Part shown: piece by piece, positions 610 to 61,783 of the stretch
Layout of the letters: every line of letters begins with the position of its first letter
Position numbering within the stretch: the stretch's first letter is position 1
Source: Parcubacteria group bacterium Gr01-1014_3
Lineage (GTDB): Bacteria > Patescibacteriota > Minisyncoccia > UBA6257 > WO2-44-18
Assembly: GCA_007376445.1 (NCBI GenBank)
Contig: VMGF01000003.1
Location: 31,024 to 95,023, forward strand
Length of the DNA: 64,000 bases
Direction of reading: 5' to 3'
Program-made: the position numbers and the translations under genes
The notes under the pieces: generated by a model
What the model saw: the letters and a program-made list of their open reading frames with translations, nothing else
Told to the model about the DNA's origin: nothing
Database searches by the model: none

Positions 610-680
610 TGCGGGATCGTCTAATGGTAGGACGTCGCTCTCTGAAAGCGAAAATTTTGGTTCGATTCCAAGTCCCGCAG
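610..680 (+). tRNA. tRNA-Gln (anticodon CTG)
   Basis: Manual cloverleaf: acceptor TGCGGGA/TCCCGCA, D-arm GTCTAATGGTAGGAC, anticodon loop CTCTGAA, T-arm TTTGG-TTCGATT-CCAAG, discriminator G. Confidence 0.7.
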
Positions 681-738
681 CATATAGAGTTGGCTTAGCG
701 AGGAACGAGCTTAGCAACTCTTATGCCCCGCCATAGGC

Positions 739-1011
739 GTGGGCAAAAAAACTATGTACTATGTCTATATTCTTGAGTGCCAGGATAAAACGCTTTACAC
801 CGGAATTACTACCGATATCCAACGCCGTTTCAAAGAGCATAGTCTGGGAATAGGAAGCGCGTACACCAGGGCCAAAAAAGTAAATAAAGTTTTATATACC
901 GAGCAATTTAAAACAAGAAGCGAAGCTCAAAAGCGTGAAGCCGAAATCAAAAGCTGGCGCCGCGATAAAAAAATAAAATTAATAAAAAAGACCCGCAAGG
1001 TTTTACCTTGA
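739..1011 (+). CDS. GIY-YIG nuclease superfamily protein (UPF0213/YhbQ-like)
   Basis: YVYILECQDKTLYTGITTDIQRRFKEH is a classic GIY-YIG N-terminal motif. Confidence 0.8.
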   Translation: MGKKTMYYVYILECQDKTLYTGITTDIQRRFKEHSLGIGSAYTRAKKVNKVLYTEQFKTRSEAQKREAEIKSWRRDKKIKLIKKTRKVLP

Positions 1012-5171: not shown

Positions 5172-5203
5172 AAAGCCCGGTCGAATGACCGGGTGGTTTT
5201 TTT
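5171..5203. terminator. bidirectional terminator (CCCGGTCGAATGACCGGG + T-run)
   Basis: Hairpin with A and T runs between convergent genes. Confidence 0.65.
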
Positions 5204-7158: not shown

Positions 7159-7839
7159 TTAATCTAGTATATATCTCCCACCCTCTTCATCTTTAATAAT
7201 TTTACCATTATCCAGGGTAATCACGCGGCGGCGAATCTTGTTGATGATTTCTTTGCTATGTGTCGCTAAAACCACCGTGGTGCCAAGTTCATTTATTTTT
7301 AAAAGCAGATTCACGATCTCCCAGGTATTATGCGGGTCCAAATTGCCGGTCGGCTCGTCGGCGATGATCACATCCGGGCGATGCACCATGGCGCGGGCGA
7401 TCGCCACCCTCTGCTTCATGCCGCCGGAAAGTTCGTGCGGGAAGCTATGCTGTTTATCCTTTAGGCCAACCATATCCAATACCTGCGGGACCAGCTCTTC
7501 GATCTCGTGCTCCGGACAGCCATTAACTTCCATCGCGAAGGCCACGTTTTCATACGCCGTCCTGGTTGGAAGTAGTTTAAAATCCTGGAACACGATACCG
7601 ATCTTCCTCCGAAGATCCGGTAGCTCTCTCATGCTTAGTTTATTCACCTCGGCAGAGCCGAAAAGAACCCTGCCTTGATTCGGTTTTTCTTCGGCAATAA
7701 GGAGCTTTACGATCGTGGACTTACCGGCGCCGGACTTACCCACCAAAGAAACAAACTCGCCAGGCGCGACTTTAAAGGAAATGTCGTCCAAAATCATCGA
7801 ATTGCCGTATTTTTTGGTTACTCCGTGGAAAGCTATCAT
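7159..7839 (-). CDS. ftsE: cell division ATP-binding protein FtsE
   Basis: GKSGAGKST Walker A, LSGGMKQR signature, IIADEPTGNLD Walker B. Confidence 0.9.
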   Translation of the reverse strand: MIAFHGVTKKYGNSMILDDISFKVAPGEFVSLVGKSGAGKSTIVKLLIAEEKPNQGRVLFGSAEVNKLSMRELPDLRRKIGIVFQDFKLLPTRTAYENVAFAMEVNGCPEHEIEELVPQVLDMVGLKDKQHSFPHELSGGMKQRVAIARAMVHRPDVIIADEPTGNLDPHNTWEIVNLLLKINELGTTVVLATHSKEIINKIRRRVITLDNGKIIKDEEGGRYILD

Positions 7840-7882: not shown

Positions 7883-8293
7883 TTAAGCTACCGACGAATT
7901 CAAAATACGTCGATATTTAACTCCCTCTCTCGTAAAATATAGCAGAATTCCTAGCTTTAGACCAGCGCTTCGTAAATAAGTCAAAACCTGCTGAGTATGC
8001 ACATAACCAAACTTTTGAACGACTTTTAACTCCAAGAGAATTTTGTCATCTACAATAAAATCCGCAAAATACTTACCTATATTTTTAGCTTTGTATTCGA
8101 GCGGAATATAAACTTCCCGCTTAAATTCTAGGCCTTGTGTTTTCAATTCTTCAGCTAAAGCTCTTTGATAATCCTTTTCTGTAAATCCCCAACCTAATTC
8201 ATTAAAAACATCAAAAACAGCGCCTACAATTTTATAACTTAGCTCCGGTAAAATTACCTTATCAGCTTTTTCTATTTGCAATATTTTGTTCAT
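7883..8293 (-). CDS. GxxExxY family protein (PD-(D/E)XK nuclease-like)
   Basis: ELGWGFTEKDYQRAL carries the G-x-x-E-x-x-Y signature; paralog of 19019..19423. Confidence 0.8.
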   Translation of the reverse strand: MNKILQIEKADKVILPELSYKIVGAVFDVFNELGWGFTEKDYQRALAEELKTQGLEFKREVYIPLEYKAKNIGKYFADFIVDDKILLELKVVQKFGYVHTQQVLTYLRSAGLKLGILLYFTREGVKYRRILNSSVA

Positions 8294-8312: not shown

Positions 8313-9041
8313 TTACTCCAACTGTAGCTCTGCCTCCACAAACTTGTCGAGCTCTCCATCTAAAACCCGGTCCGGCTGGCGGTGCTCCACGTTTGTGCGG
8401 TGATCTTTGACCAGCTGATATGGATTCAGCACGTAAGATCGGATCTGATTCCCCCACTCCGGCTTTACTTTGGTGCGAAGCTCGGAAAGGGTTTGCTTCT
8501 GATTGGCGATCATCAACGCCAATAGCTTGGATTTCAAAAGCTGCATCGCCTTTTCCCGGTTCTGCGGCTGTGAACGCTCAGCCTGCGAAGCCGCGGCCAG
8601 GCCAGTCGGTAAATGAACAATGCGCATGGCCGTCTCGCGTTTATTTACATTCTGACCACCCGGCCCGCTGGAGCGCGACATTTCCAATTTCAAATCTTCC
8701 GGCGGGATCACGAGCTTACGATGTTCAATGTCCGGAAAGATCGGAACTATTTCCACCAGGGCAAACGAAGTATGGCGGAGTTTTTTGGAAGAAAATGGCG
8801 AAATTCGGACGAGCCGATGCACGCCCATTTCTTTTTTCAGCGTTCCATAGACAAATTCACCTTTTATTTCCATCGCGCGATCATCCACGATCGAAGTTTT
8901 CCAGCCCCGCTTTTCCGCGTACTTCAAATACATCTTAAAAAGCATATTCGCCCAATCCTTGGCGTCATCCCCGCCCACGCCGGCGTGAATAGTTAAGTGG
9001 ACTGGGCCGTGATCATATTTTCCTGTCAGGGGCTTAAACAT
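8313..9041 (-). CDS. prfB: peptide chain release factor 2 lacking N-terminal domain 1 (domains 2-4 only, 242 aa)
   Basis: SPF tripeptide (RISPFSS), GGQ motif (SGPGGQNVNK); aligns to E. coli RF2 from about residue 112 onward; ATG overlaps the stop of the upstream amidohydrolase (ATGTTTAA). Confidence 0.75.
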   Translation of the reverse strand: MFKPLTGKYDHGPVHLTIHAGVGGDDAKDWANMLFKMYLKYAEKRGWKTSIVDDRAMEIKGEFVYGTLKKEMGVHRLVRISPFSSKKLRHTSFALVEIVPIFPDIEHRKLVIPPEDLKLEMSRSSGPGGQNVNKRETAMRIVHLPTGLAAASQAERSQPQNREKAMQLLKSKLLALMIANQKQTLSELRTKVKPEWGNQIRSYVLNPYQLVKDHRTNVEHRQPDRVLDGELDKFVEAELQLE

Positions 9042-9852
9042 TGATTTTGAAAAGTTTCGCGGCGTTTTTATACATTACATATTCCATATCCGTCTTGGAA
9101 ATTCCCAGCTTTTTCACATATTTAATATATTCTTTCGGACCAGCGAGCGGCCAATCCGTGCCGAAAATAAGTTTACGGGGCGTCTGTGAATACGCGATCA
9201 GCTCCTTGATCTTCTGTATCGTCATTTTGCCATAAGGCGAGTTAAACCCGTCATGCAAAAACAAACCGGAAATATCGGCATAAACATTCGGATTCCTATA
9301 CAGAACTTCGGCGCAGTCCATCATCCAGGGATTCCCAAGATGCGCTATCACTATCTTTAGATTCGGAAAATCTACTGCCACCTCATCAACACCGAGCGGA
9401 TGCGCGTATTTCACTTTCGCGAAAGTCTTGTAGGCGAGCGTGTCTCCTGTATGGAAAATTACTGGTACGCCCAGTCGGTCGCACATTTCATAGATCGGTC
9501 GCGCGACCGAATCGCCTGGATAGAAATGCTGATAACCGAGGTAAAGTTTAACTCCGACGATCTTTTTCAGCCGGATCAAAACCTCCAGCCGATCCAAATC
9601 TTGCTTGGTGTATTCAGACACGTTCAAAGAACCAATCACATGCAGATTTGAAAGTTCTTCGGTTAATTTGATAAGCGTGTCCGTGGAGGGACCAGTGCCA
9701 TCCTCGCCTCGCCAATTCGCGATCACCAACGCGTGATCCACTTTATTCTTCTTCATCTCCGCTAAAAGAGCGCTTCTTATTTCTTCATAGGACTTTTTAG
9801 CGAACGGAGTATTTTCCAGCTTTGTTATGTGTGTGTGCGCGTCTATGATCAT
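9034..9852 (-). CDS. metal-dependent amidohydrolase (amidohydrolase-2 / TIM-barrel family)
   Basis: IDAHTH N-terminal metal-binding motif, HTGD, IAHLG motifs. Confidence 0.65.
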   Translation of the reverse strand: MIIDAHTHITKLENTPFAKKSYEEIRSALLAEMKKNKVDHALVIANWRGEDGTGPSTDTLIKLTEELSNLHVIGSLNVSEYTKQDLDRLEVLIRLKKIVGVKLYLGYQHFYPGDSVARPIYEMCDRLGVPVIFHTGDTLAYKTFAKVKYAHPLGVDEVAVDFPNLKIVIAHLGNPWMMDCAEVLYRNPNVYADISGLFLHDGFNSPYGKMTIQKIKELIAYSQTPRKLIFGTDWPLAGPKEYIKYVKKLGISKTDMEYVMYKNAAKLFKINV

Positions 9853-9854
9853 GG

Positions 9855-9927
9855 AGCCACCTCCCGGAATCGAACCGGGGACCTTTGCTTTACGAAAGCA
9901 CTGCTCTACCAGCTGAGCTAAGGTGGC
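9855..9927 (-). tRNA. tRNA-Thr (anticodon CGT), copy 1
   Basis: Manual cloverleaf on minus strand: GCCACCT...AGCTGGTAGAGC...loop TTCGTAA...TTCGATT...AGGTGGC; CCA may be encoded (9852-9854). Confidence 0.7.
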
Positions 9928-9934
9928 TTTGACG

Positions 9935-9966
9935 TTATATTATAACATTTCCCGAGTTTTTCCAAA
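9935..9966 (-). promoter_or_regulatory. sigma70-like promoter for tRNA-Thr copy 1 (TTGGAA -35, extended TGTTATAAT -10); duplicated at 10236-10280
   Basis: Minus strand reads TTGGAAaaactcgggaaatgtTATAAT 8 nt before the tRNA 5' end. Confidence 0.55.
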
Positions 9967-10075
9967 GAAAATAAGAGCAGGTGACGAGAATCGTCCGGTC
10001 ATACGACCGGACAGCCCAGTCGGATGACTGGGCGAACTCACGTCTCTACTTTACCCCGCACCTTTTCTCGATTAG

Positions 10076-10147
10076 AGCCAGAGAGAGGAGTCGAACCTCC
10101 AACCCCTCCCTTACGAAGGGATTGCTCTGCCATTGAGCTACTCTGGC
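10076..10147 (-). tRNA. tRNA-Thr-like (anticodon CGT), copy 2, flanked by 35-bp inverted repeats
   Basis: GCCAGAG..GCTCAATGGCAGAGC..loop TTCGTAA..GGAGGTTCGACTCCTCT..CTCTGGC; 27-43 mismatch. Confidence 0.6.
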
Positions 10148-10181
10148 AAATTTTATACGTGATCGAGAAAAGGTGCGGGGT

Positions 10182-10218
10182 TTACGAAAGTAGTGTTCTA
10201 CCACTGAACTATATCGGC
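10182..10218 (-). pseudogene. tRNA 5'-half fragment (acceptor, D-arm, anticodon stem-loop CTACT-TTCGTAA), no 3' half
   Basis: GCCGATATAGTTCAGTGGTAGAACACTACTTTCGTAAA then runs into inverted-repeat sequence; no complementary 3' acceptor nearby. Confidence 0.45.
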
Positions 10219-10284
10219 GTCTCTCTTTATTTAAATACTAGGTCATATTATAACATTTTGCGGATTTTTTCAAAGAAAATAATG

Positions 10285-10356
10285 AGCGGATAACGGGAGT
10301 CGAACCCGTGTCTGATCCTTGGGAAGGATCCATAATAGCCGTTATACGATACCCGC
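10285..10356 (-). tRNA. tRNA-Gly (anticodon CCC)
   Basis: GCGGGTA..GTATAACGGCTATTAT..GGATCC-TTCCCAA..ACGGGTTCGACTCCCGT..TATCCGC. Confidence 0.75.
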
Positions 10357-10359
10357 TTC

Positions 10360-10938
10360 TTAATACTCGCTATTCACCACTACTTCTTTACCATTCCAAG
10401 ATAAACTTGGCAATAAAATCATCACGCGGGCTAAGGCGCGGGCATCGGTTAGCCAGACTGCCAATTCTTTTTTCTGAAGAGTTAGCCGCCCCTCCAGCAC
10501 TTCCCTCTCCGCTTGAGGCACCAAAACCATCTTCCGAAACTCCGACAAACTCACTCCATAAAGACTCTCTACTGATTCGGCCAACTCAGGACTTTGCAGA
10601 TTCGGAGCGCTTAATTTATTTTCCACCAACTGCGCGAGATCGTTGCCCACGATCGTCTTGAGTCCGCCGTTAATTAAAATATTGTCGATCGCGCGGTTCA
10701 AAAGCTGGCGATGAAGCTCCCGCTTAAAGCCCTCGCTTTTTACATCAGTCCCCTGCGCTCCAAGAATATTTCCATAATATTGATAAGCCGCCACAAAGTC
10801 GTTATTCATTGATCTCGCCAGGATCATCTTCGCGTTCACGAACGCCACCGGATAATAACCAAAATGAACAAGGTAGTATCCGCCAAGGCCTAAAAACAAA
10901 ATTGAAAGTAGAATTATAAAGTAGTGGTTAGTTTTCAT
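10360..10938 (-). CDS. membrane-anchored protein, possibly SurA-N/PpiD-like periplasmic chaperone domain
   Basis: Single N-terminal TM, helical extracytoplasmic domain; weak similarity only. Confidence 0.35.
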   Translation of the reverse strand: MKTNHYFIILLSILFLGLGGYYLVHFGYYPVAFVNAKMILARSMNNDFVAAYQYYGNILGAQGTDVKSEGFKRELHRQLLNRAIDNILINGGLKTIVGNDLAQLVENKLSAPNLQSPELAESVESLYGVSLSEFRKMVLVPQAEREVLEGRLTLQKKELAVWLTDARALARVMILLPSLSWNGKEVVVNSEY

Positions 10939-11299: not shown

Positions 11300-12004
11300 C
11301 TAACTAGGATCTGATTTATTCTTCTTTCGGTCACGGACGAAGCGAATCACATATAATGGCGTAAACAGCAAGAACCAAAGGAATATTCCGCTGATAAATA
11401 CGACCAACATCAGCCACCATACTGCTAGCGTAACTGGCCAGAAGAGAAGCCCTAAAGCGCTAAAACCGGAAACAACCCAGAAGCCAAGCGGAGTCATTAA
11501 CCAGTCATTACTAAAATTCTCGTAGTTATTATCTTTCTGAACATCCCGCAAATCCCAACGATGATTCCTGCCATTTACAAACCAGGCATCAGGGTTTGGC
11601 GCGTGCGCCAGGCTAGCTCTATCGTGGCCTTCTTGAACAAGCGCCTCGATCATCTCGGCATTTTTTTTATCGATATCTTTCAGTCTTTGAATTGTTGAAT
11701 CGATAAATTGCCGAGCATAATCAATCTGCTTCTGTCTTCCGCCATTCAGGTAATAAGTTAAATTACGGAAAATAAAGATCAGATTCTCGACGGATGTAAC
11801 CACTGGCAGTACGGGCAGTGAAAGCATATTCTCAAACGCTCCGCTTGAACCGGAAGTCTGTCGATATTTTCGTTTGAGATCATATCTTTGATCTGCCGAT
11901 CGAACTTCTCTCGAAATCCAATGACCAAAATAAGCCGATGTCATAAATAGATATAGGCCCGCCATCAGCACCCAAAGCCATAGGTCCATTCTTTGTCCTC
12001 TCAA
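11300..12004 (-). CDS. hypothetical membrane protein (TM helices at both ends)
   Basis: ORF, hydrophobic segments. Confidence 0.4.
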   Translation of the reverse strand: MRGQRMDLWLWVLMAGLYLFMTSAYFGHWISREVRSADQRYDLKRKYRQTSGSSGAFENMLSLPVLPVVTSVENLIFIFRNLTYYLNGGRQKQIDYARQFIDSTIQRLKDIDKKNAEMIEALVQEGHDRASLAHAPNPDAWFVNGRNHRWDLRDVQKDNNYENFSNDWLMTPLGFWVVSGFSALGLLFWPVTLAVWWLMLVVFISGIFLWFLLFTPLYVIRFVRDRKKNKSDPS

Positions 12005-12030: not shown

Positions 12031-13851
12031 CTACTTTTTTAACAATTCCTTAAAAATGTTCGCGGGAATTTTTATTTGAGAGCCTTCACCGCGTTCTTTC
12101 AAGCGCTCCTTGCCACGTTGCTGCTTCTTCCAAAGCTTCATCTTGCGGGTGCGATCACCGCCATTTTTTCCGAAATCACCGAGATCTTTCTTGAGCGCCG
12201 GAATCGTCTCGCGCGCCACAATTTTACCGCCCACGACCGCCTGCAAGGCTTGAGTAAACTGCTGGGCTTGCAACAATGTCTTTAATTTCTCCACAGTCAT
12301 CCGGCCTTCCCGTTCGATCTCTTTTTTTGGAATAATTCTGGTTAAACCCGGGATCGCGTTGGCGGCCACGTGGATCTCCAGCTTCGCCACATTAGCCAGA
12401 GCATATCCGACCAGCTCATAACTCAAAGAGGCAAAACCATTAGAAACAGACTTCAATTTGTCGTCGAGATCACTGATCAGATCGGCGAGCGGCAGTTTCG
12501 CGGAAATTAAAATATTGTTGCCGAAATTCTTGGTTTCAATTTCGCTGAATCGGAAAATTTCCTTTAGCTGTAAGATCGCGCCAAGATATTTTGTCGGAGT
12601 TAATATTTCGATCTTTGAGATCGGCTCCTCCACCGCCTCCGCGTCGTTCGGAAAATCTTTCGGATTGGTGATCACCCTCCATTCACCCTTTTCTTTCACT
12701 CGATAAGCCACGGATGGGAAGCTGTGCACGGTTTCGATCTTAAACTCGCGCGCCAAACGCTCGGCGGTAATTTCAAAATGAAGCCGTCCTAAAAATCCGC
12801 CCTTGAATCCCCGGCCCAGAACTTCGTTCATATCCGCTTCAAATTTCAGCGAAGCGTCAGTGAGGCGTAGCTTTGATAGCGCTAGTTTCAATTCGTCATA
12901 TTGATCGGTATCTTCCGGATAAAATGACACGAAAACCACCGGCTTTGGCTCGCGATAACCAGGCAAAGCCATCTTTTTTACTTCCGCGGAAAGCGGTTGC
13001 TTCGAGGAAAGCAGCGTATCTCCGATTTTCAGCTTATCGGAATCCTTAATACCCGTGGCGATATAGCCGATCTCCCCGCTTTGAATAGATTTAGAAGGTT
13101 TTGGCTTCGGCGCGAAGTATCCTACTTCTTTTGCTTTGGCGGTGGTGTTGGTAGCGTTTAAAAAGATGTTGTCGTTTTCATTAAAGGATCCATTAAAAAC
13201 CCGGATATGAGCCAGGACGCCCTTGTGTTCGTCGTAATAAGAATCAAAAACTAAAGCGCGGGATAATCCGGCAATAGTTTGCGGTTCGCTCGGGGCCGGA
13301 ATTTTTTCCACGATTTTCTGCAAAAGAGTTTCCACGCCAATGCCCGTCTTTCCGGATACTTTCAAAATTTCTTCAGGATCCAAATTTAATAATAAACTCA
13401 AATCGTTTATGGCCGCTTCGATCTGATCCGGATCGGCCGCGTCAACTTTATTCACCGCGCCGATGATCGTCAGTCCGGACTTCCGGGCATTCTCAAAATT
13501 CGCCAAAGTCTGCGCCTGGATACCCTGCGTGGCGTCAACTAAAAGAACCGCGCCCTCCACGGCCGCGAGCGCGCGCGAAACTTCATAACCGAAATCAGAG
13601 TGCCCTGGCGTATCAATCAGATTCAGGACATAGGGTATAGCGTTTAGGGTATAGGACATTCTGACTGGAGCCATTTTGATGGTGATTCCTCTCTCCCGTT
13701 CCAACTCCAGCTGATCCAAAAACTGCGGCTTCATGAGCCGCTTTTCAATCGTGCCAGTGGATTCCAAGAGCCGGTCCGCCAAAGTGGACTTTCCATGGTC
13801 TATGTGCGCGATTATGCAGAAATTCCTGATGTGACTAGTCAACTGGTTCAT
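12031..13851 (-). CDS. lepA: translation elongation factor 4 (LepA) with Lys-rich C-terminal tail
   Basis: AHIDHGKST, DTPGH, NKVD GTPase motifs; LepA-specific C-terminal domain. Confidence 0.9.
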   Translation of the reverse strand: MNQLTSHIRNFCIIAHIDHGKSTLADRLLESTGTIEKRLMKPQFLDQLELERERGITIKMAPVRMSYTLNAIPYVLNLIDTPGHSDFGYEVSRALAAVEGAVLLVDATQGIQAQTLANFENARKSGLTIIGAVNKVDAADPDQIEAAINDLSLLLNLDPEEILKVSGKTGIGVETLLQKIVEKIPAPSEPQTIAGLSRALVFDSYYDEHKGVLAHIRVFNGSFNENDNIFLNATNTTAKAKEVGYFAPKPKPSKSIQSGEIGYIATGIKDSDKLKIGDTLLSSKQPLSAEVKKMALPGYREPKPVVFVSFYPEDTDQYDELKLALSKLRLTDASLKFEADMNEVLGRGFKGGFLGRLHFEITAERLAREFKIETVHSFPSVAYRVKEKGEWRVITNPKDFPNDAEAVEEPISKIEILTPTKYLGAILQLKEIFRFSEIETKNFGNNILISAKLPLADLISDLDDKLKSVSNGFASLSYELVGYALANVAKLEIHVAANAIPGLTRIIPKKEIEREGRMTVEKLKTLLQAQQFTQALQAVVGGKIVARETIPALKKDLGDFGKNGGDRTRKMKLWKKQQRGKERLKERGEGSQIKIPANIFKELLKK

Positions 13852-18411: not shown

Positions 18412-18440
18412 AAAACCCCCGGTCAATTGACCGGGGGTTT
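18412..18440. terminator. bidirectional terminator AAACCCCCGGTCAATTGACCGGGGGTTTT
   Basis: Perfect 10-bp stem with A and T runs. Confidence 0.75.
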
Positions 18441-61722: not shown

Positions 61723-61783
61723 CTAACCATAAACTAACGAAAAATTTATTGATTGTCAATAAAAAAACCAGTCAAATGACCGG

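Follow-up and report, generated by a model that had tools for sequence, protein, structure and literature searches.

A tRNA-Thr gene nested within a split tRNA-Thr pseudogene of a Patescibacteria genome, and similar nests at the same locus in relatives

In a 64-kb chromosomal stretch of a metagenome-assembled genome from the Patescibacteria (the Candidate Phyla Radiation, CPR), which we call the window, a tRNA-Thr(CGT) gene is split in its anticodon loop by a 127-nt insert that itself carries a complete tRNA-Thr(CGT) gene between inverted repeats. This is a real and unusual arrangement of one tRNA gene inside another, a pseudogene together with its replacement, and we regard it as a variant either of a small insertion element or of an element that targets tRNA genes while preserving tRNA function. 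The anatomy of the nest, the precision of the insertion relative to an intact homologue, its recurrence in relatives and the decay of the interrupted gene are all directly visible in the DNA. The account that we consider probable is that of a self-compensating insertion cassette: a stem-bounded replacement tRNA split a gene for its own isoacceptor and would now be expressed from the promoter captured with it. The expression, processing and mobility of the cassette, and the enzyme behind it, are what we infer.

Anatomy of the nested tRNA-Thr genes

All features of the nest are on the minus strand, in the order tRNA-Gly(CCC), promoter A, outer (interrupted) tRNA-Thr, promoter B and a second, intact tRNA-Thr (Table 1). 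ARAGORN and Rfam both call the three complete tRNAs and differ only in boundaries (10075/6-10147 and 9852/5-9927), and the components listed in an initial annotation of the bare sequence, i.e., three tRNAs, promoter copies, a 5' tRNA part and stem-loops, lie where it placed them or within a few bases. The outer 5' part spans tRNA positions 1-39, that is the 5' strand of the acceptor stem, the D arm, the 5' strand of the anticodon stem and the loop, and closes with TAAA, the left-hand one of two copies of positions 36-39. The cassette that follows consists of 72 nt of tRNA and 55 nt of non-tRNA sequence, and no open reading frame (ORF) or encoded enzyme is found within its 127 nt. Beyond the cassette the outer gene resumes with the right TAAA, the 3' strand of the anticodon stem ((A)GTAG), the variable bases AGAC, the 5' strand of the T stem (GTGAG) and the T-loop bases TTCG. 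Here it is interrupted once more, by 41 nt that read CCCAGTC-ATCC-GACTGGG and then GTCCGGTC-GTAT-GACCGGAC, with stem-loops at 10032-10015 and 10012-9993. The initial annotation had described the outer gene as a tRNA half; the 5' part is indeed present, but there is also a 3' part downstream, at 10053-9975, which is degenerate and has its T arm interrupted.

The arms had been taken for a 35-bp inverted repeat forming a hairpin of more than 35 bp. The repeat is actually 20 bp of perfect complementarity (10053-10072/10162-10181) plus 7 bp, or 27 bp in total, where the additional pairs are those of CTACTTT with AAAGTAG: this mirrored motif, already pointed out in the initial annotation, extends the repeat across a 5-nt bulge. 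A search of the window for the 19-mer arm with up to 3 mismatches finds the two arms themselves and nothing else, against 0.01 occurrences expected, and chance is excluded. The arm duplex has a stability of -37 kcal/mol, matched by none of 1000 shuffled sequences, and the 148-nt unit is predicted to fold as a stem plus cloverleaf at -75.1 kcal/mol (z = -10; 0/200 shuffles equally stable). A motif scan for orphan tRNA D arms finds a single one in the window, at 10195-10211, which is that of the outer 5' part.

The putative promoters A and B are direct repeats of 41 nt with 85% identity, both including TTGAAA and TGTTATAAT. Promoter A would drive the outer tRNA and hence the inner tRNA as well. 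No GIY-YIG ORF lies between 9928 and 10283, just a spurious 89-aa plus-strand ORF that crosses the region.

When the cassette, one flanking copy of TAAA and the 41-nt T-loop insert are deleted in silico, a sequence of 72 nt remains that ARAGORN calls as tRNA-Thr(CGT) at default settings. Compared directly with the uninterrupted and syntenic tRNA-Thr(CGT) of a relative (locus L016), the spliced sequence is identical at 64 of 72 positions, and at 52 of the 53 positions from 8 to 60. Because the latter match crosses both junctions, both inserts of the window are base-precise insertions into an allele of tRNA-Thr that we call type C, which bears out the view of the initial annotation that a repeat-flanked tRNA unit had disrupted a tRNA gene at the anticodon loop. 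The junction would read CTACTTTCGTAAAGTAGAGACG at an empty site of the outer gene and CUACUUUCGUAAAGUAG in a joined outer tRNA. Since TAAA stands at both cassette junctions, the exact split point is ambiguous and may be placed anywhere from 35/36 to 39/40.

The outer gene has also decayed. Its acceptor stem pairs at only 4/7 positions (GCCGATA against CACCTGC), two of the T-stem pairs are G-U, and the divergence from L016 is concentrated in the 3' acceptor strand, where TATCGGC is expected and CACCTGC is observed. With this degenerate strand, two interruptions and clear homology to a functional tRNA, the outer tRNA-Thr(CGT) gene is, judged by its sequence, a dead gene and a tRNA pseudogene. 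In its native form it is called neither by Rfam nor by ARAGORN, with or without introns (0-400 nt allowed); the intron-containing tRNA that the initial annotation had kept in view is not found, and a degenerate downstream 3' half does exist. TATCGGC, searched for as the 3' half of a split or permuted gene, occurs 17 times in the window where 10 are expected, and near the locus just as the complement of the 5' half itself. The outer 3' remnant (9975-9991 with 10050-10033), together with the two hairpins, is predicted to form a Y-shaped structure followed by UUAUUUUCUUU (-43.6 kcal/mol, z = -6.6), and may act as a terminator before promoter B.

Both complete tRNA-Thr genes have a full cloverleaf with G1-C72, C2-G71 and the anticodon CGU (full-length Rfam matches and ARAGORN drawings), and both appear to be functional-type tRNA-Thr genes. 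The inner one, type B, most resembles the single tRNA-Thr(CGT) present in L018 and L008/L017, which is free of flanking arms there, and the second one, type A, is near-identical to the sole tRNA-Thr(CGT) of L009, L025, L030 and L032. Because each is the sole tRNA-Thr(CGT) at the locus in different relatives, neither is misassigned, as had been suspected of one of them; both are ordinary types. Three allelic types of tRNA-Thr that occur singly in relatives stand side by side in this genome.

Table 1. Features of the nest, in minus-strand order, followed by GIY-YIG reading frames and hairpins discussed in the text. Positions refer to the window unless a locus is named.
Feature	Position	Strand	Basis and remarks
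tRNA-Gly(CCC), intact, un-nested in this genome	10284-10356	-	ARAGORN; Rfam tRNA 54.9 bits
Promoter copy A	10242-10282	-	-35 TTGAAA at 10273-10268; extended -10 TGTTATAAT ending at 10247
Outer tRNA-Thr(CGT) pseudogene, 5' part, GCCGATATAGTTCAGTGGTAGAACACTACTTTCGTAAA	10181-10218	-	Read from sequence; matches intact tRNA-Thr of L016
Cassette left arm, CCCCGCACCTTTTCTCGAT	10162-10180	-	Perfect inverted repeat
14-nt spacer from left arm to inner tRNA, CACGTATAAAATTT	10148-10161	-	Unpaired in predicted fold
Inner complete tRNA-Thr(CGT), type B, no encoded CCA, cassette cargo	10076-10147	-	ARAGORN; Rfam 61.3 bits, full length
Cassette right arm, ATCGAGAAAAGGTGCGGGG	10054-10072	-	Perfect complement of left arm
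Outer tRNA, continued	10033-10053	-	Collinear with intact tRNA-Thr of L016 after removal of the inserts
41-nt two-hairpin insert in outer T loop	9992-10032	-	Absent from L016 homologue; removal restores TTCGATT
Outer tRNA, end: T-loop ATT, T-stem 3' strand CTCGT, degenerate acceptor 3' strand CACCTGC, then TC	9975-9991	-	
Promoter copy B	9934-9974	-	Direct repeat of promoter A
Second tRNA-Thr(CGT), type A, CCA encoded, intact	9852-9927	-	ARAGORN; Rfam 64.8 bits
GIY-YIG ORFs near split tRNA genes	L010 9749-10024; L245 7244-7525		Pfam E range 1e-13 to 1e-20
Stand-alone 90-aa GIY-YIG ORF after tRNA-Gln	739-1011	+	Pfam E = 3.5e-20
Hairpin family copies	5177-5192; 9995-10010; 10016-10031; 18419-18434; 61768-61783		

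Recurrence at the locus in related genomes

Relatives were found via LepA homologues, exact-protein look-ups and a metagenome scan with the SurA_N-like protein that is encoded directly upstream of the tRNA cluster; their loci carry L-numbers, and some of them come from Logan contigs or metagenome assemblies. Exact look-ups of window proteins matched fragments of the source organism only, and the next best relatives of the window LepA (12031-13851) are 75% and 71% identical, so that the source genome has no close sequenced relative. The order in the relatives is conserved: permease, LepA, DivIC-like, SurA_N-like, tRNA-Gly(CCC) and tRNA-Thr(CGT), then prfB. The tRNA-Gly(CCC) is syntenic in all of them, and the seven distinct relatives with tRNA-Thr inside the fetched DNA (L008/L017, L009/L010, L016, L019, L025, L030 and L032/L033) share the flanking genes and have one tRNA-Gly(CCC) and one tRNA-Thr(CGT) each, 3 nt to ~2.4 kb apart. 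A promoter-like motif similar to that of the window (TTGAAAAA..TAATAT-type) precedes their tRNA-Thr(CGT) wherever upstream sequence was inspected. One tRNA-Gly(CCC) and one tRNA-Thr(CGT) would then be the ancestral state of the locus.

The same nesting is found at the same locus in the tRNA-Gly(CCC) of L019/L020/L026, which are three independent assemblies, and in that of L016. In L019/L020/L026 the 5' side of the outer gene reads GCGAGAT..CAACC, a 20-nt palindrome and TTCC[CAAG], followed by the arm CCCGGTAGCTACAAGAAAGATT and a complete inner tRNA-Gly(CCC); on the 3' side the complementary arm is followed by [CAAG]GTTG GGGC GCCGG TTCGATT CCGGT ATCTCGC, and the outer acceptor strands of L019 are complementary at 7/7 positions. 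The nest of L016 has the same CAAG-duplicated junctions with very different arms (CCGGGGAGTGAAAGTGCGAG), and its outer tRNA-Gly is chimeric, with 5' and 3' parts from different tRNA-Gly types. Degraded or variant nests are present in L012, L030/L031 and L247, that of L030 in two independent assemblies, and the SurA_N-like protein of L012 is the closest homologue found outside the source organism (87% identity).

The nests have much in common. The duplicated tetranucleotide is always that of tRNA positions 36-39 (TAAA for Thr, CAAG for Gly), the inserts start with CC(C)G and end with CGGG, and the three well-preserved elements, those of the window, L019 and L016, measure 127, 127 and 129 nt; the arms of L019 and L016 are ~20-21 bp long. 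From one element to the next the arm sequences are unrelated, but within each element they are complementary: cognate arms pair at -34 to -37 kcal/mol (0/1000 shuffles equally stable) and non-cognate arms at -2.6 to -16.7 kcal/mol. Inner and outer genes share the anticodon in every nest. A tRNA-Gly of the GCAGGTG type is the inner gene in L016 and L247 yet the outer gene in L030, which indicates serial replacement. The scan for orphan D arms gave hits at nested or split loci only, bar one tRNA-Gly in L034 that is cut by the contig end. The nests belong to a turnover process that recurs in this clade at its Gly(CCC)-Thr(CGT) locus.

Other tRNA genes of these genomes are broken beside GIY-YIG genes. 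L009/L010 carry a 5' fragment of tRNA-Gly, 34 nt long and ending within the anticodon, then two hairpins, a GIY-YIG ORF and a full, identical tRNA-Gly; in L245 the order is 13 nt from the 5' end of tRNA-Thr, two tetraloop hairpins, a GIY-YIG ORF and a full tRNA-Thr. In the window itself, tRNA-Gln(CTG) at 610-681 (+) is followed by two GC-rich hairpins at ~690-745 and by a GIY-YIG ORF, and an 18-bp perfect inverted copy of its 5' end lies directly upstream, at 588-605, separated from it by the spacer ATAT. We note that this layout resembles the cassettes of hairpins plus GIY-YIG gene that split the tRNA genes of L009/L010 and L245. The 3' ends of tRNA genes are affected as well. At 4085-4340 of L022, tRNA-Gly(CCC) is followed by a hairpin-rich insert of ~165 nt and then by a duplicate of its own 3' end (TCTCGTATCCCGCTCCA); at the start of the insert this 3' end is present in inverted form (GGGGATACGAGA). 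The arrangement mirrors, on the 3' side, the duplications of 5' fragments. In L008 (15440-15566, -) tRNA-Gln has, 20 nt further on, the T arm and acceptor strand of another tRNA-Gln allele; this 3' fragment is one more relic of tRNA allele replacement.

Hairpins of the form CCRGTC-N4-GACYGG occur five times in the window, against 0.22 expected from shuffling. The 41-nt T-loop insert consists of two hairpins of this family and resembles the two-hairpin modules upstream of the GIY-YIG genes in L009, L245 and the window (690-745); the copy at 5177 has an A-run/T-run setting that resembles a bidirectional terminator. A different hairpin, of 33 nt (CGTTTTGTA..ACAAAACG), is ~96% identical together with its adjoining junction between L012 (~1236-1268) and L030 (~7660-7692), in distant genomes whose surrounding outer and inner tRNA-Gly genes differ, which suggests that it moves horizontally on its own. 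At 7660-7860 of L032/L033, between the SurA_N-like gene and tRNA-Gly, lies an imperfect palindrome of ~190 nt (GGCGGGCCTGGTATTCTGGAA ... TTCCAAAATACCAAGCCCGCC), another hairpin-type insert at the same hotspot. Two independent Logan contigs end near the tRNA anticodon region at the locus, L004 in the stem (window ~10189) and L034 just past the loop; these ends may reflect strain heterogeneity or a drop in coverage related to the hairpins.

The surrounding genes vary too. A PDDEXK_3 gene between prfB and ftsE/ftsX is present in the window, L008 and L009/L010 and absent in L030, L032, L245 and L247. In the window this domain is encoded by a separate gene that adjoins prfB (7883-8293), and several LepA homologues of 740-810 aa (P0022, P0057, P0058, P0099, P0101, P0112, P0113) carry it as an added nuclease domain (PF13366). 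The ATG of an Amidohydro_2 gene at 9034-9852 (-) overlaps the terminal A of the encoded CCA of the second tRNA-Thr. The gene is missing at this position in all syntenic relatives, where prfB comes after the tRNA, and it appears to be a lineage-specific insertion at the 3' end of the tRNA; a scan of the genome collection with the window amidohydrolase gave one relative (L001, 55% identity), where the gene lies elsewhere in the genome, is not syntenic and has no tRNA nearby. Between lepA and the DivIC-like gene the window has a 234-aa ORF (11300-12004, -) with no recorded Pfam entry for its called product; it is missing in the syntenic relatives, where DivIC directly follows LepA.

Origin of the nests

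If the nest is a self-compensating insertion cassette, a type C tRNA-Thr(CGT) gene, now dead, would have been split in its anticodon loop, between 35/36 and 39/40, by a 127-nt cassette that holds a functional type B tRNA-Thr(CGT) within inverted arms of 19-20 bp. The insertion would be tolerated because the cassette brings a working copy of the very tRNA that it destroys. The inner tRNA would be transcribed from promoter A of the outer gene as part of a precursor of ~300 nt, in which the arms would form a long stem, so that the inner tRNA could fold as an independent cloverleaf, kept apart from the outer halves homologous to it. Its release would then fall to RNase P and enzymes of 3' processing, with the outer halves as by-products. 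Free of selection, the outer gene would have decayed to the present 4/7 pairs in its acceptor and gained the two-hairpin insert in its T loop, and its 3' remnant may now be terminator-like ahead of promoter B. More generally, a recurrent process in this clade would place stem-bounded tRNA copies into an isoacceptor gene at the same tRNA position. The insertion would most likely take place at the DNA level and depend on a nuclease or transposase supplied in trans, and the almost purely Watson-Crick pairing of the arms also suggests that they were made or homogenised at the DNA level. The leading candidates for the agent are the stand-alone GIY-YIG nucleases encoded beside other split tRNA genes, to which the nests are linked by association only.

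Several observations weigh against such a cassette. The arm has no second copy in the window, in 34 relative loci (9-mer core) or in viral contigs (exact matches), and beyond the terminal CCCG/CGGG the arms are not conserved between elements, which is not usual for transposase-recognised ends. No enzyme is encoded in the cassette, and the Thr nest is without a GIY-YIG gene. The tRNA-Gly nests could all stem from a single ancient event, which would leave just two independent insertions, one in Gly and one in Thr. G-U pairs are almost absent from the arms, and their strands show no asymmetry; with pairing so nearly all Watson-Crick, this analysis does not tell RNA-level from DNA-level constraint and speaks neither for nor against selection on the RNA. 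The whole nest of the window is, moreover, spanned by one assembly, with which a Logan contig agrees base for base up to its end at 10189.

No transposase gene was seen near any nest, and BLAST of the nest against phage genomes matched only an ordinary tRNA-Thr. Junction 14-mers and 15-mers had 90 and >120 matches in viral contigs, none of them with a tRNA D arm upstream, and these were set aside as chance matches.

A less likely but real possibility is that the nests are copies of an undescribed class of element, a minimal, enzyme-free, stem-bounded "replacement tRNA" cassette that is site-specific for anticodon-loop positions 35-39 of its own isoacceptor gene, inactivates this gene and seizes its promoter. 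Such cassettes would have invaded each other serially across the Patescibacteria, driven by tRNA-cutting GIY-YIG nucleases or by an RNA-level route of insertion. In a rarer variant the stem would let both nested tRNAs mature; protein-dependent splicing of tRNAs would then be seen in Bacteria for the first time.

We find it rather unlikely that the nests are instead one-off products of double-strand-break repair and recombination, with no dedicated mobile cassette. Divergent tRNA alleles from related lineages would here recombine via the conserved blocks of the D loop, anticodon loop and T loop, and breaks in tRNA genes, possibly made by GIY-YIG nucleases, would be mended by end joining or by fold-back synthesis that creates the arms anew in each event. 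Arms that are unique to each element and almost purely Watson-Crick are what is expected if they were copied at birth, and repair would also fit the 18-bp perfect inverted copy directly upstream of the window tRNA-Gln, the inverted copy of the tRNA-Gly 3' end in L022, the chimeric outer genes such as that of L016, the stray 3' fragments such as that beside tRNA-Gln in L008, and the differing lengths of the retained 5' fragments (9, 11, 13 and 34 nt). The elements of the window, L019 and L016 are nevertheless too regular for independent accidents, with the same insertion point, the same duplication of positions 36-39, the same CCCG/CGGG ends and nearly the same length, and both window junctions are precise to the base relative to L016. 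The initial annotation had offered a nested or permuted tRNA precursor as its own alternative. A functional precursor of this kind, with a tRNA-encoding intron, would yield both mature tRNAs, the arms holding the outer halves together for trimming and ligation, and we judge it very unlikely. Its geometry is like that of split tRNAs, in which the 5' part is followed by sequence complementary to one preceding the 3' part, and it lies at the anticodon-loop position where Patescibacteria group I introns sit (35/36, 36/37; PMC13011429). The outer halves of L019 are fully compatible, and in L012 and L030 the outer acceptor strands are still perfectly complementary although the outer middle is lost. 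However, the outer acceptor of the window pairs at 4/7 positions and a second insert of 41 nt sits in its T loop, and none of the 6 distinct nests examined would be left with a canonical outer tRNA if only its cassette were taken out. The nest lacks a bulge-helix-bulge motif and a detectable group I core, the cassette has just 55 nt outside its tRNA, and ARAGORN finds nothing in intron mode. The outer tRNA would also be redundant because outer and inner genes share the anticodon, and it counts against splicing that no tRNA splicing endonuclease is known from Bacteria.

An artefact, in which a metagenome assembler concatenated or folded back strain variants of the tRNA-Thr locus, seems to us extremely unlikely. 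The window does come from a metagenome-assembled genome, an independent Logan contig from this organism breaks off within the outer anticodon stem, at 10189, and the Logan contig L034 stops inside the tRNA-Gly gene at the locus. The first of these contigs, however, matches the window at every one of the 191 bases aligned from its end, which take in the upstream gene's stop, tRNA-Gly, promoter A and 30 nt from the start of the outer tRNA. A chimera would not give perfect 20-bp arms, a 4-nt target duplication and base-precise junctions, and equivalent nests are present in independent assemblies from different projects (L019, L020, L026; L030, L031; L016; L012; L247).

In genome-reduced Patescibacteria, tRNA genes are usually single-copy and essential. 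If the self-compensating cassette is the right account, an insert that destroys a tRNA gene and delivers a working copy would give selfish DNA a compact route into an essential gene that needs no splicing, and it would explain why the same tRNA has different body sequences in closely related lineages. Annotation and estimates of genome completeness are affected, with interrupted genes that are invisible to tRNA finders and with isoacceptors that appear to be duplicated. The many small stand-alone GIY-YIG genes of these genomes provide a testable link to the turnover of tRNA genes. If, in addition, the stem-bounded design is a general processing module, it would also offer a natural template for tRNA expression from foreign transcripts.

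Comparison with known systems

The literature searched on nested, embedded or intron-encoded tRNAs, bacterial split tRNAs, MITEs (miniature transposable elements with inverted repeats) in anticodon loops, and GIY-YIG genes with tRNAs gave no description of this architecture. Among known systems, Patescibacteria carry group I introns in the anticodon loop of tRNA genes, at 35/36 in Asn and Asp and, in a divergent form, at 36/37 in Thr(GGU) (PMC13011429; bioRxiv 10.1101/2020.01.27.920355). The nests share with them the phylum, an insert in the anticodon loop and an interrupted gene that is missed by standard tRNA finders, and given the 4-nt ambiguity the nest junction can also be written as 35/36. 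Rfam Intron_gpI gave no match at E up to 10 in the window (9700-10500) and none at E up to 0.5 in six related loci; all that Rfam reports in the region, at its gathering threshold and at E up to 10, are the three tRNAs and chance microRNA-like matches on the hairpins. Group I introns are recognised by a P3-P9 core, a length of ~200 nt or more, a U before the 5' splice site and a G as the last base of the intron. Unlike them, the 127-nt insert with its 72 nt of tRNA leaves no room for a ribozyme core. The base before its 5' junction depends on the register: when the insert is made to end in G (..GGGG/TAAA) it is preceded by G35 (Thr) or C35 (Gly) rather than U, and another register that puts U36 before the insert makes it end in A (..GGGGTAAA), so that none gives both U and G. 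Nor do the joined exons form a functional tRNA, since the acceptor pairs at 4/7 and a second deletion in the T loop is needed: the interrupted gene is degenerate, and function would come from the cargo tRNA and not from splicing.

Islands and prophages, as Williams reportedly described in 2002 in Nucleic Acids Res, integrate into tRNA genes by means of tyrosine integrases and rebuild the tRNA from a copy borne by the element. The nests are like such islands in their target, as the anticodon loop is a classic sublocation of the crossover, in the supply of tRNA function by the element and in the displaced tRNA fragment that is left behind. Integrase islands, though, are kilobases long, encode an integrase and duplicate a 3' segment of the tRNA as a direct repeat, whereas the nest insert is 127 nt without a gene, has inverted terminal repeats and a duplication of 4 nt only, and carries a whole independent tRNA. 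Small size, absence of coding sequence, terminal inverted repeats of ~20 bp and a short target-site duplication of fixed length are all features of MITEs and other transposons with terminal inverted repeats. MITE families, however, are multi-copy, and their conserved ends correspond to those of a parent that encodes a transposase; the nests have one copy per locus, arms that are unrelated apart from CCCG/CGGG, a functional tRNA as cargo and an isoacceptor gene as target. No second copy of the arm was found in the window, the 34 loci or the viral contigs, and the arms of different nests do not cross-pair, which leaves them without the multiple copies and shared ends of a MITE family.

In Nanoarchaeum equitans, Randau et al. 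are said to have described in 2005 tRNA halves with complementary leaders, and archaeal tRNA introns reportedly have bulge-helix-bulge motifs. As in these split tRNAs, the 5' part of the outer gene ends in the anticodon loop and a long helix can join the halves. Unlike them, the host is a bacterium, the halves belong to one contiguous transcript and enclose a tRNA, and the outer tRNA is degenerate. A bulge-helix-bulge, with two 3-nt bulges 4 bp apart, is not formed in the predicted fold: 5 nt of the 5' strand and 0 nt of the 3' strand are unpaired next to the abutting 20-bp helix, or 8 nt and 3 nt if only the canonical 5-bp anticodon stem forms.

Free-standing GIY-YIG homing endonucleases are known from tRNA gene regions, such as SegB of phage T4 (PMC13096335), and "fractured genes" are split by genes for free-standing homing endonucleases (PMC2677866). 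The Thr nest of the window differs from these systems in having no endonuclease gene, and a stem-bounded insert of a whole tRNA is undescribed there. Like them, the genomes studied here have a small GIY-YIG gene beside or inside a tRNA gene, in L009/L010, in L245 and by the window tRNA-Gln, together with duplicated tRNA fragments (L009/L010, L245), an inverted 5'-end copy (window tRNA-Gln) and a turnover of alleles at the locus.

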